NCBI GenBank assembly: GCA_002454845.1
Contig: DKJQ01000232.1
Span: 4,819-45,676 of the forward strand
Direction: 5' to 3'
DNA length: 40,858 nucleotides
Source of the DNA: Ignavibacteria bacterium UBA6688
GTDB taxonomy: Bacteria; Bacteroidota; Ignavibacteria; UBA10030
Shown here: positions 4,395 through 24,879 of the stretch, piece after piece
Layout of the letters: each line of letters opens with the position of its first letter
Position numbering within the stretch: position 1 is the stretch's first letter
Translations under genes and position numbers: made by a program
Notes under the pieces: model-generated
The model's database searches: none
What the model saw: the letters and a program-made list of their open reading frames with translations, nothing else
What the model was told of the DNA's origin: nothing

Positions 4395-5369
4395 GTGAAA
4401 CCATTGCACACGGAAGAACACCCGAGGGGATATCCTCTCCTCGGTATCCATCATGTCACCGCACTCGCAGGCGACCCGCAGAACAACGCCGACTTCTACA
4501 CAAAGGTCCTCGGTCTGCGGTTGGTGAAGAAAACGGTGAACTTCGACGCGCCGGACGTCTATCACTTGTATTACGGAGACAAAATCGGAAGGCCGGGGAC
4601 AATTCTGACGTTCTTCCCTTTTCCGAATGCGGCACGCGGAAAACGCGGTGTGGGAGAGATTGAAGCCGTTTCCCTTACGGTCCCCGTGTCATCCATGGGT
4701 TTCTGGGCGGAGCATCTTTCCAGGCACGGTGTCGCGTTCGGCGGCCCGGCCCGGCGTTTCAACGAAGACGTTTTCTCGTTCCAGGACCCCGATGGAATGC
4801 GTTTGGAGTTGGTCTTCACGGAAGGGGCGCAAGGCCGCTCACACTGGTCCGGCAGTCCCATACCGGGCGACTCTGCTGTTCGCGGCATTTCCGGGGTCAC
4901 CCTGATGCTTGCAGACCACGAAAAAACTGCCCGGCTGCTCGTCGGGACCATGGGATTCACATTGCTTGAAACGCGCGGAGACCGTTCGCGGTACGTGATC
5001 GGCGAGGGGCACGGGCGGGCATCCCTCGACATTATGACTCAGCCCACCCTGCCCCCGTCGCGGCAGTCGGCCGGTTCCGTGCACCACATCGCATGGAGAG
5101 TGGCAACGGACGAAGGACAGCGTGCGTGGCAGGAAACCATTGCACAAGTCAACATCCCCGTCACCGATATTCTGGATAGAAATTATTTTCAGTCGATTTA
5201 TTTCCGCGAACCCGGCGGCGTCCTGTTCGAGATTGCGACCGACACGCCGGGTTTTACTATCGATGAACCAGCAGACGGGCTGGGAAGCCATCTCCAATTG
5301 CCCCATTGGCTTGAACCCGACCGCAAAAGCATCGAACGTACGCTTCCACCGATTGTCCTTCCCCTGTGA
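4395..5369 (+). CDS. Ring-cleaving dioxygenase, glyoxalase/VOC superfamily (MhqA/MhqE/MhqO-like)
   Basis: 324 aa, GTG start with GGAG upstream. The N-terminus GIHHVTALAGDPQNNADFYTKVLGLRLVKKTVNFDAPDVYHLYYGD closely resembles Bacillus Mhq-type dioxygenases. A second VOC repeat contains HHIAWRV. Confidence 0.85.
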   Translation: MKPLHTEEHPRGYPLLGIHHVTALAGDPQNNADFYTKVLGLRLVKKTVNFDAPDVYHLYYGDKIGRPGTILTFFPFPNAARGKRGVGEIEAVSLTVPVSSMGFWAEHLSRHGVAFGGPARRFNEDVFSFQDPDGMRLELVFTEGAQGRSHWSGSPIPGDSAVRGISGVTLMLADHEKTARLLVGTMGFTLLETRGDRSRYVIGEGHGRASLDIMTQPTLPPSRQSAGSVHHIAWRVATDEGQRAWQETIAQVNIPVTDILDRNYFQSIYFREPGGVLFEIATDTPGFTIDEPADGLGSHLQLPHWLEPDRKSIERTLPPIVLPL

Positions 5370-22117: not shown

Positions 22118-22474
22118 CGAAGGTCGGTAACTTTTTTGTTATGCCTGTATGAACTCCAGGAGCGAGCTTTGGGCGCTCTATTCGGCACCTCAGGAGCGAA
22201 CCCTGGCTGAGGTACTTTCTTCACGTCACAGCGGAGAAACCTGTCGAATAGTGTGCGGGACGAGCCGGAAACAACCCTGGAGGGTTTTTTGCAAAAAAAC
22301 GCATGAAATGGAATTTTTCACCTGCGGATTACGCTCCGTCTCTGGTGAAGCAAGGCGCTGTATCGCGCGAGTTTTCACGGTGATTCCTCATCCCCGGACT
22401 GCTGCCGGGGTTTCACCAATCCTGACCTTGTGGCATATTCCATAGGTGACATCTGACTGCCACCGGACCAAGGC

Positions 22475-22504
22475 GGAACAAAGGAGTGGGATCATCATCC
22501 ACTC
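22475..22504 (-). terminator. Possible weak terminator after the beta-lactamase/VanX fusion gene
   Basis: On the minus strand: GAGTGG (22504-22499), 9-nt loop, CCACTC (22489-22484), then CTTTGTTCC. The stem is short and the U-tract is poor. Confidence 0.3.
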
Positions 22505-22527
22505 ATTCAGGCGGAAGGCCGGCAATT

Positions 22528-24879
22528 TCATCCCTCCGGTATCTCCTCGAACCGTACGGTCCCGATCGGATACTTCCTCCAATCTCCGTAATCGAAATGC
22601 CACCATTCCCATTCGTACACATTGAATCCCTCCGCTTCCATGGCCGACCGGAGCAATTCCCGGTGCCACCGTTGAAGTGAAGTGCCGCCGGGATAGTCGG
22701 GGAAGGCCCGGTCGGAAAATTCATCATAACCGCTTACCATATCGACCGGCTTGCCGGTTTTGAGATCATAGAGCGTCAAATCGACCGCACAGCCACGGTT
22801 ATGACGCGACCCTTTTGACGGGTCGGCAACGAAAATCCGCTTGTCTTCCGGTGTCGCATCCCAGAACATTTTGGTCACGTACCAGGGCCGATACCCGTCG
22901 TGGATCATCAATCCGTATCCATGATCCTTCAGCCTTCTCAGCGCACGGACTAACGCCTCTGCCGCGGGACGTTGCAGGAACGCTTTCGCTTCTGAATAGA
23001 ATACGGAGCTCATGAAGTTGTTCTTCGACGCGTACCGTATATCGAATCGAATGGTTGAATCGAGCGTGGAAAGATCGACGAGATCGCTTTTGTAGAATTC
23101 CCCTTCTTCCCGTGGTGGTTGTGCCGCCAGAGCTTCCGACTTCAGTGTCTCGATCGGCTTCAGGGGCCGGATTTTGAAGGTTCCTCCCTCTTCACCGTCG
23201 ATCGCCCTGCGCTGAAATAGAACGCTTGCCGCCTCGACCCCGGTGACTTTCCCACGCGCATTCCGGCGGAAGAACAATTTTTCGCCATGGTATAATCCAT
23301 ACTCCGGAAACGCAAACACATCCTTCGTGATCTCGCGAAGCGGATAGAGATCGAACCACTCTATCAGGCAATACAGCTTTCCCTCTTTTTCAAGGATGTA
23401 AAGAATATTATGATCCCATCCGTACTCCCCGAGAAGTCCCTTCCAACGATCCGGGACCGGAGATGGTTTCTGTTCTGGCGTTCGTATCAGAGTATCTTGA
23501 CCCAGCACGAGGGCATCGGAGGAAAGCATGAGGAAATTCATCCCGACGCTCAACCGATCGTCGGTCACCAGTTGGGAACCGGAAAGTCTGAGCTTCAAAC
23601 CGGTCCGGGAACCAACGGCCGCCAGGAGAGTTCCGTTCCGGTTCATCAGGCGGACACTTCTTCCCCCTTTGGCATAGAGTCCTGCCAGGTCTGCGGCATC
23701 TTTCGGGTGTATCGGAAATGTCGGCTGAATGACGGGCCGCGCCTCCCCTTCCCTGTAGGCCAGAAGAAAATGAAATGCATAGTTCGCGATCCTCTCCAGC
23801 ACAGGGTTGATCGCATCGACAGATGCCATCAGGACAATACCGAGTTTCTCTTCCGGGAGAGCCGCGAGCTCCGTGCTAAAGCCATACACTGCTCCGCCAT
23901 GCCCAACACGCAGGTAGCCTTCGAAATCGGACACGGCAAAACCGATTCCGAATCCCGACCGTTGATCCACCGGAACAAACTGCGGCACCCACATTCGTGC
24001 GAGGGTCGGGGGGTTCAGCAAGCGCCCCGTTTCCCCGATCCCGCCGTTGAAAAGCATGGCAAGAAATTTTCCAAGGTCGATCACGTTCGAGTATAGATTT
24101 CCAGCCGGCCCCGTTCCCAAGGGGAACGTCGGGGCGGGAAACGTTCGACCGTCGACTGTCCACATCGTCCCTTGGGCAAGATGATCCCGGACCTTTGCCG
24201 TACGGACGAACGAACTAGCCTCCATTCCCAGGCGATCAAGGACGGCTTCCTGAATGTACTGCTCAAACTTTTTCTCCTTCAACGTCTCAAGCACCAGGCC
24301 GACTGTCGCCACTCCCGCGTTCGAATACTTGGTGCGGGTTCCCGGTTCATAGACCAGGGTTGTCCGATTCAGGCTTTGAACTGTGGTAGCCAGCGACGGC
24401 TGGCCGGGATCGAAGTAGTGCCCCACAGGGGACTCCCGGACCAGTCCCGACCGGTGCGACATCAGGTGCCGGAGTGTGATCTGCTTTTGGAACGGATTGC
24501 GAGGTTTGAATGCAGGCAGATAGCGTGTCATCGGGGCATCAAGGTCGATCTCACCCTGTTCCACAAGCTGCATGATGGCGATATCGGTGAAGAGGTTCGA
24601 GACGGAGCCGGCGCGGTAGGAGGTTTCGTACGTTGCCGGGATTTTCTTTTCCTCGTCGGCGTACCCGAACCCTTCCGCCCAGATGATGGTCTGGTCGTCG
24701 ACCAGGGCAATCGAAAGTGCGGGAATGTTCTTGTCTTCTATCTCATGCTGGATGAACTCGCGCAGGGTCGCAATAACGGGACGGTAATCCTCCACCCTCT
24801 CTTGTCCGGGTAAAACTCCGGGCATCATGAAAGACAAGAGTATCCACGCGCGCAACAATTCCGTGAACCATCGATGCAT
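22528..24879 (-). CDS. Exported fusion protein: N-terminal beta-lactamase/DD-peptidase-fold serine hydrolase domain plus C-terminal D-Ala-D-Ala dipeptidase (VanX/DdpX, peptidase M15D)
   Basis: The ORF track extends to 24972. I prefer the ATG at 24879, which has AAGGAG upstream and gives signal peptide MHRWFTELLRAWILLSFMMPGVLPG. N-domain motifs are GSVSNLFT (SxxK position reads SxxN), YSN and HGG. C-domain motifs are IRFDIRYAS, SRHNRGCAVD and EWEWWHFDY. Confidence 0.85.
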   Translation of the reverse strand: MHRWFTELLRAWILLSFMMPGVLPGQERVEDYRPVIATLREFIQHEIEDKNIPALSIALVDDQTIIWAEGFGYADEEKKIPATYETSYRAGSVSNLFTDIAIMQLVEQGEIDLDAPMTRYLPAFKPRNPFQKQITLRHLMSHRSGLVRESPVGHYFDPGQPSLATTVQSLNRTTLVYEPGTRTKYSNAGVATVGLVLETLKEKKFEQYIQEAVLDRLGMEASSFVRTAKVRDHLAQGTMWTVDGRTFPAPTFPLGTGPAGNLYSNVIDLGKFLAMLFNGGIGETGRLLNPPTLARMWVPQFVPVDQRSGFGIGFAVSDFEGYLRVGHGGAVYGFSTELAALPEEKLGIVLMASVDAINPVLERIANYAFHFLLAYREGEARPVIQPTFPIHPKDAADLAGLYAKGGRSVRLMNRNGTLLAAVGSRTGLKLRLSGSQLVTDDRLSVGMNFLMLSSDALVLGQDTLIRTPEQKPSPVPDRWKGLLGEYGWDHNILYILEKEGKLYCLIEWFDLYPLREITKDVFAFPEYGLYHGEKLFFRRNARGKVTGVEAASVLFQRRAIDGEEGGTFKIRPLKPIETLKSEALAAQPPREEGEFYKSDLVDLSTLDSTIRFDIRYASKNNFMSSVFYSEAKAFLQRPAAEALVRALRRLKDHGYGLMIHDGYRPWYVTKMFWDATPEDKRIFVADPSKGSRHNRGCAVDLTLYDLKTGKPVDMVSGYDEFSDRAFPDYPGGTSLQRWHRELLRSAMEAEGFNVYEWEWWHFDYGDWRKYPIGTVRFEEIPEG

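Follow-up and report, generated by a model that had tools for sequence, protein, structure and literature searches.

A serine peptidase-dipeptidase fusion gene on the reverse strand

The stretch of DNA analyzed here, the window, comprises 40,858 nucleotides of Ignavibacteria bacterium UBA6688 (GenBank assembly GCA_002454845.1, contig DKJQ01000232.1, forward-strand positions 4,819 to 45,676) and carries on its reverse strand the gene for P0122, a fusion of an S12 serine peptidase domain with a VanX/DdpX-type zinc D-Ala-D-Ala dipeptidase domain. P0122 reads S-V-S-N where S12 peptidases carry the active-site motif S-x-x-K, and this work concerns the origin and consequences of that replacement of the catalytic Lys. 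The protein has 783 residues counted from an ATG that is also used by orthologs of 781 to 791 residues; an 814-residue frame with a TTG start is merely the longest open reading frame (ORF) and was set aside, as the orthologs use the ATG.

P0122 is a four-module fusion, in the order predicted signal peptide, S12 domain, lipocalin-like beta domain, second beta domain and VanX domain (Table 1). Pfam detects PF00144 (Beta-lactamase, 210 bits, E 6.7e-62) and PF01427 (Peptidase_M15, 118 bits, E 4.3e-34), and a phmmer search of the Protein Data Bank (PDB) finds Pab87 from Pyrococcus abyssi (PDB ID: 2qmi) at E 4.8e-43. An AlphaFold2 (AF2) model was built from a 72-sequence alignment (predicted local distance difference test score (pLDDT) 88.5, predicted template modeling score 0.85). 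Its leading Foldseek matches are 2qmi, IS11 (PDB ID: 7spn) and the Ochrobactrum anthropi enzyme DAP (PDB ID: 1ei5), and matches to 2qmi, 1ei5, LACTB and R61, all at a probability of 1.00, assign the domain to the beta-lactamase/penicillin-binding protein fold. The N terminus is a putative signal peptide, and P0122 is predicted to be exported; the model shows a helix at residues 2 to 18, followed by a disordered stretch at residues 18 to 28 with pLDDT <50. The first of the two beta domains is lipocalin-like, as in Pab87, DAP and SurE (Foldseek), and the second accompanies VanX in stand-alone proteins of relatives that match residues ~460 to 783. The fusion is single-copy, and no other VanX-type gene occurs in the genome (3.5 Mb, 92% complete), which also encodes five stand-alone S12 paralogs, all with SxxK kept.

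Table 1 Features of the P0122 gene and protein, numbered from the first letter of the window
Feature	Position	Strand	Residues and details	Basis
S12/two-beta-domain/VanX fusion gene (P0122)	22528..24879	-	783 residues	ORF list and translation; Pfam PF00144 and PF01427
Predicted signal peptide	24802..24879	-	MHRWFTELLRAWILLSFMMPGVLPGQ	Sequence reading and AF2 model
S12 peptidase domain (beta-lactamase fold, Pab87/DAP-like)	23740..24792	-	Residues 30-380	Pfam, PDB, Foldseek
S-V-S-N replacing S-x-x-K	24595..24606	-	Ser92, 24604-24606; Asn95, 24595-24597, codon AAC	Reverse complement, PDB alignments, AF2 model
Y-S-N motif, intact	24319..24327	-	Tyr185 and Asn187	Aligned to Pab87 YLN
H-G-G motif (HxG, KTG equivalent), intact	23893..23901	-	Residues 327-329	Aligned to Pab87 HSG
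Two all-beta middle domains	23086..23739	-	Residues 381-598	AF2 secondary structure, Foldseek
VanX/DdpX-type M15D zinc D-Ala-D-Ala dipeptidase domain	22531..23085	-		Pfam PF01427, VanX 1r44 alignment
Stop codon of the P0122 gene	22528-22530	-

Asn95 occupies the position of the catalytic lysine

The motifs of S12 enzymes, as described for Pab87, are SxxK, YxN and HxG (PMC2651629). On the plus strand the first of these sites reads gttcgagacgga, the reverse complement of which, TCC GTC TCG AAC, encodes S-V-S-N in the context YRAGSVSNLFTDIAIMQL. In the phmmer alignments GSVSNLF of P0122 is matched to GSITKSF of Pab87 and GSITKTF of IS11, so that Ser92 aligns with the Ser of the SITK motif in both structures, and residue 95, where the catalytic Lys is expected, is Asn. 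The AF2 model places Ser92 at the N terminus of a helix formed by residues 91 to 107, the canonical position of the nucleophile. The other two motifs are present as Y185-S-N187, which is invariant in the homolog alignment (A1), and H327-G-G329. We looked for a second S-x-x-K within residues 1 to 400 of P0122 and found none; with the PDB alignments placing SVSN on the motif, a true SxxK elsewhere in the domain is not indicated. A preliminary description of the window, made from the letters alone, had located SVSN at the SxxK site, reported YSN and HGG as retained and noted that AAC lies one third-position base from a Lys codon. It was right in all these details, the Lys codons in question being AAA in the sister species and AAG in the next outgroup.

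The Asn codon recurs in separate assemblies

To judge whether the Asn codon is genuine we compared independent assemblies at codon 95 in place of mapping reads. The exact 783-residue protein is also encoded in ENA ERZ27235157, JGI 3300034945, Logan SRR5323573 and Logan SRR1026849, and the gene sequence in these four sources is identical to that of the window, AAC included. The four contigs differ from the window by 0 to 2 bases over 4.5 to 8.4 kb (99.96-100% identity), and these flanking differences indicate that they represent a near-clonal population rather than copies of a single contig. A fifth contig (L005), from another assembly of SRR1026849, also has AAC and shows 6 synonymous differences and 1 non-synonymous difference, all seven of which fall within nucleotides 1092 to 1186 of the gene (95 nucleotides). 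Since differences clustered in this way mark a local strain patch or recombination tract, L005 was rejected as an independent Asn-bearing strain and was not counted as evidence of selection after the Lys95-to-Asn change (K95N).

The codons around the site read TCC GTC TCG AAC in the window and TCA GTC TCC AAA in the sister species, and the synonymous differences so close to codon 95 point to a separate haplotype and away from a base-calling error. We also scanned for a Lys allele on the window haplotype, using a pattern with the three variable third positions left free. None was found in metagenome contigs, and among genome contigs the pattern recovered the metagenome-assembled genome (MAG) of the sister species only, with no Lys allele on the window haplotype; both are weak negatives. 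The preliminary description had allowed for a sequencing error, in which case the organism would truly encode Lys. The change is indeed a single third-position base and the evidence comes from assemblies, but the same base stands in five assemblies from different pipelines and at least four runs or samples, on a haplotype set apart by the neighboring TCC/TCG codons (TCA/TCC in the sister), and an error of sequencing or assembly is thus very unlikely.

The lysine is conserved in orthologous fusions

A motif search recovered S[VIL]SK in 118 of the 120 best homologs, and P0009 and P0076, which it missed, carry SVSK as well; at the alignment column of residue 95, all 121 closest homologs have Lys. 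An exhaustive search with the S12 domain gave 143 diverse representatives spanning the motif, none of which has Asn at this column. The fusions of the sister species (P0002 and P0125, from Bacteroidota MAGs) are 95% identical in amino acid sequence to P0122 and use AAA, and the next outgroup, 82% identical, uses AAG, from which it follows that Asn95 is derived and recent. Every full-length fusion found in related genomes has SVSK or SISK, 24 of these 41 genomes lacking a fusion at E <1e-50, and the eleven catalytic positions checked are all canonical in 249 of the 261 full-length fusions sampled.

As judged from these comparisons, the Lys-to-Asn change arose very recently and occurs in a single species-level lineage. 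The preliminary description had proposed to ask whether Asn is conserved across orthologous fusions, with Lys in orthologs counting against its proposal; Lys is overwhelmingly kept, and by that measure the sampled sequences refute Asn95 as a conserved design feature of the fusion family.

The remainder of P0122 is well preserved

Over the 237 columns that are conserved at ≥95%, P0122 departs at only two positions, N95 and V545; its homologs depart at 0 to 13 of the same columns, so that P0122 has as few departures as most of them or fewer. The 783-codon frame is open. Alignment of the C-terminal half with VanX (PDB ID: 1r44) shows that the DGYRP, SxHxRGxAxD and EWWH motifs are retained and that R664, H693, D700, E758 and H761, the equivalents of VanX R71, H116, D123, E181 and H184, are all kept. 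By this alignment His693, Asp700 and His761 would be the zinc ligands, Glu758 the catalytic residue and Arg664 the transition-state Arg, the residue set of the M15D family.

The ratio of non-synonymous to synonymous substitution rates (dN/dS, Nei-Gojobori) relative to the sister species is 0.11 overall, 0.17 for the S12 part and 0.04 for the VanX part. On the branch leading to the window, the changes in the S12 part that could be polarised comprise, besides K95N, 3 non-synonymous and 7 synonymous ones, and this branch shows no gain of a compensating Lys.

Divergence from the sister (contigs L006, L007 and L016) is mosaic along the gene. The 5' 1050 nucleotides, which encode the S12 part, differ by ~3% (synonymous rate, dS, 0.098), and the 3' part by 8 to 10%, with a 150-nucleotide peak of 23% at codons ~500 to 550 (dS 0.40-0.43); the downstream flank is 95.6 to 98% identical. 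This pattern suggests recombination within the fusion gene between close species, and the low divergence of the S12-coding part is a further sign that K95N is recent.

Loss of S12 catalytic residues elsewhere in the family

Eight of the 143 diverse representatives lack SxxK. One is P0266, and the other seven are fusion-family members; of the seven, six have both domains and P0193 is a 509-residue fragment without a VanX match (Table 2). The variant motifs recur in cluster mates, each being found in at least two sequences or in a complete genome, which argues that they are not errors; the host of P0236, Telmatocola sphagniphila, is a cultured planctomycete with a complete genome.

Table 2 Fusion-family proteins without SxxK
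Protein	Residues at SxxK	YSN	HxG	VanX domain
P0188	EVSG	FSN		Residues intact
P0236 (Telmatocola sphagniphila, WP_213498054.1)	GITK, nucleophile Ser lost	HSN		Intact
P0230/P0374	SLSQ	FSN	HGG lost	Intact
P0190, P0227, P0244 and fragment P0193	[A/T/E]L[S/A]Q		Lost	Zinc and catalytic residues lost (P0193: domain absent)

A FastTree phylogeny puts the proteins with a dead S12 site in separate places. The deep branches are poorly resolved, and the well-supported ones force at least three origins of the state in which the S12 site is dead and the VanX site live. We considered P0188 as a member of an old dead clade and rejected this, since the fusions closest to it, at 57-61% identity, are canonical; its dead state, too, would thus be limited to one lineage. 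The S12 domain of P0188 is 58 and 55% similar to those of two canonical relatives, which are 57% similar to each other, and this equal similarity indicates that the fold stays constrained after catalytic death. Taken together, the sampled sequences indicate that S12 catalysis has been lost sporadically and repeatedly, in a few per cent of lineages, and that these losses are tolerated, with the domain retained. P0188, P0236, P0230/P0374 and the P0190/P0227/P0244 clade resemble P0122 in keeping fold and architecture despite the catalytic loss, but differ in that each has lost two or three S12 residues (Ser and/or Lys plus Tyr, and in some also the HxG His) and that their losses are older, whereas P0122 has one change.

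The clade of P0190, P0227 and P0244 is monophyletic with a support of 100 and looks from its sequences like a doubly dead pseudoenzyme subfamily. In its VanX domain Ser or Gly stands in for the Asp and Lys, Arg or Leu for the Glu; two of the three proteins also have Leu or Thr at the position of the His. These proteins, with the fragment P0193, come from metagenomes and a 5.8-Mb contig; the four-module layout is preserved, and conservation is strongest in the S12 fold.

Probable consequences of the replacement for function

The Lys of SxxK is the general base that activates the Ser nucleophile, and it acts as a proton shuttle. Asn95 would be expected to do neither, because its amide is unable to accept a proton, and we infer that the S12 site of the window lineage is dead or severely weakened. 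For class C enzymes, molecular dynamics and quantum mechanics/molecular mechanics simulations support Lys67 as the general base, and a re-examination of Lys67Arg found a substantial loss of activity (reviewed in PMC6723624). A literature search for K67N, K73N, K65N or an SxxN motif returned nothing relevant.

The account that we favor, and consider probable, is that K95N (AAA/AAG to AAC) is a recent, genuine missense change which abolished or strongly lowered acyl-enzyme catalysis by the S12 domain and has been tolerated alongside a working VanX domain. The allele would have become fixed recently in one species-level lineage of soil Bacteroidota. With the rest of the protein untouched, the zinc dipeptidase half would still work, so that the loss of the serine site would be tolerated and not designed, and the S12 fold would persist after the loss, presumably for a structural role or for ligand binding. 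Placed beside the other fusions of Table 2, P0122 appears to be the youngest case in a family that has lost S12 catalysis sporadically and repeatedly.

Several points weigh against this account. In the class C literature, Lys67 mutants can keep partial activity on some substrates (PMC6723624), and the inactivity of the S12 site of P0122 is deduced for a family that is known here from sequence and models. The four Asn-bearing data sets are near-clonal and could come from one site, so that fixation may not extend to the species at large, and a minor Lys allele in the population is possible, since the evidence consists of assemblies and not of reads. Finally, the changes on the window's branch are too few to tell relaxed from maintained selection on the S12 domain.

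An alternative, in line with the different mechanism that the preliminary description had allowed for, is that the Asn95 enzyme is still catalytic, with Tyr185, perhaps together with the invariant Lys184 or with the amine or carboxylate of the substrate, as general base, the change altering the rate or the substrate preference without killing the site. All other active-site motifs are intact and the gene shows no other damage; moreover, the role of Tyr150 in class C enzymes and substrate-assisted routes are debated, and the effects of Lys67Arg are variable (PMC6723624). However, Lys is invariant in every close ortholog and Asn occurs in no sampled relative, the members without this Lys have also lost the Tyr and/or the Ser (P0188, P0230), as expected of dead sites, and an amide cannot accept the proton. 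We therefore regard a surviving catalytic site as unlikely.

The preliminary description had suggested that the S12 domain may be a catalytically dead binding module that presents substrate to the VanX domain. One part of this stands, in that the architecture tolerates loss of S12 catalysis with the fold kept, as in P0188, P0236, P0230/P0374 and the doubly dead clade; against the other part, orthologs overwhelmingly keep the Lys and the change is confined to one recent lineage. Independent losses with the fold kept make a non-catalytic role of the S12 fold plausible, but that the domain hands substrate to VanX is speculation. In a stronger form of the idea, K95N would be the first step of the recurrent pseudoenzyme transition, the S12 domain being kept by selection as a non-catalytic module that binds D-Ala peptides, or serves as a scaffold, and captures cell-wall-type peptides for VanX. 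We think this unlikely; if it were true, the family would display in nature a gradation between a fusion of two enzymes and a protein that only binds, the doubly dead clade included.

It is also conceivable that the whole gene is drifting toward a pseudogene in a small clonal population, K95N being the first visible lesion and no part of the protein being needed. The near identity of the Asn-bearing contigs (99.96-100%) suggests low diversity and strong drift, and the fusion is dispensable in the group, being absent from more than half of the related genomes (the 24 of 41 noted above). But the frame is open, conserved columns are departed from at two positions only, the VanX residues are all intact with a dN/dS of 0.04 against the sister, and the gene is the only one of VanX type in the genome, all of which makes general decay quite improbable.

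The favored account, a tolerated missense loss of S12 catalysis, bears on a biochemically uncharacterised family found widely among bacteria of soil and sediment. The Asn allele of the window and the Lys allele of the sister species, 95% identical to it, form a natural pair, otherwise isogenic, for probing what the S12 domain contributes to the fused enzyme, and the recurrent loss of S12 residues with a conserved fold suggests a role of the serine domain beyond catalysis. For annotation, homology alone does not justify naming the gene product an active serine hydrolase or beta-lactamase.

Relation to characterized enzymes and to other architectures

The fusion family has thousands of members in Bacteroidota, Acidobacteriota, Planctomycetota and KSB1, and is annotated generically, as 'CubicO group peptidase/D-alanyl-D-alanine dipeptidase' by JGI and as 'serine hydrolase' by NCBI. 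A literature search found no paper on an S12-VanX fusion. Canonical fusions share the four-module architecture of P0122 at 55 to 95% identity; the sampled close ones all have S[VIL]SK, whereas SVSN was seen, among those sampled, in the window's lineage only.

Both sequence and fold (Foldseek E 2e-30, 470 columns) make Pab87 (PAB0087) the best solved relative of P0122. In the two proteins a lipocalin-like beta domain follows the S12 domain, and both have YxN and HxG; Pab87 acts on muropeptides as a D-aminopeptidase and DD-carboxypeptidase (PMC2651629). Pab87 has SITK, is cytoplasmic and octameric and lacks a VanX domain, whereas P0122 has SVSN, a predicted signal peptide, a second beta domain and VanX. 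DAP, which ranks fourth in the Foldseek search (566 columns), has two beta-barrel domains after its S12 domain, like P0122, but its SxxK is intact and it has no dipeptidase domain.

VanX and DdpX (MEROPS M15D) are stand-alone cytoplasmic enzymes, whereas the domain of P0122 that aligns with them, its C-terminal 185 residues with the catalytic equivalents kept, sits in one chain with S12 and beta domains and is predicted to be exported. P0122 scores 137 bits with the DdpX model NF007557 (cut-off 176) and 87 bits with NF033115 (cut-off 320), and these scores below the equivalog cut-offs indicate that its VanX domain is a relative and not an ortholog of VanX or DdpX. No vancomycin-resistance genes were found near the P0122 gene, and the findings have no bearing on antibiotic resistance.

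A 47-codon ORF (22387-22530, reverse strand) overlaps the stop of the fusion gene by 4 nucleotides. It is called as a gene in contigs of the Asn lineage (L001-L003) and not in those of the sister species, and may not be real.

Related genomes (G007, G010, G011, G014, G016, G020 and G023) also encode stand-alone proteins of 350 to 390 residues (L022-L028) that match only residues ~460 to 783 of P0122. Such C-terminal halves in related genera suggest that the second beta domain and VanX form an independent unit that can work without S12. Longer fusions occur as well, mostly in Planctomycetota, one set with PF11954 (DUF3471) added and the other with an N-terminal class-A-type domain (Beta-lactamase2, PF13354) before S12; P0010, P0011, P0013 and others have 1250 to 1380 residues, and P0014, P0016 and others ~1135. 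The giants P0157, P0158, P0189 and P0195 (2259-2967 residues), together with P0266 (1662 residues), contain three or four tandem S12 domains, and in P0266 TLSS replaces SxxK in all three copies.

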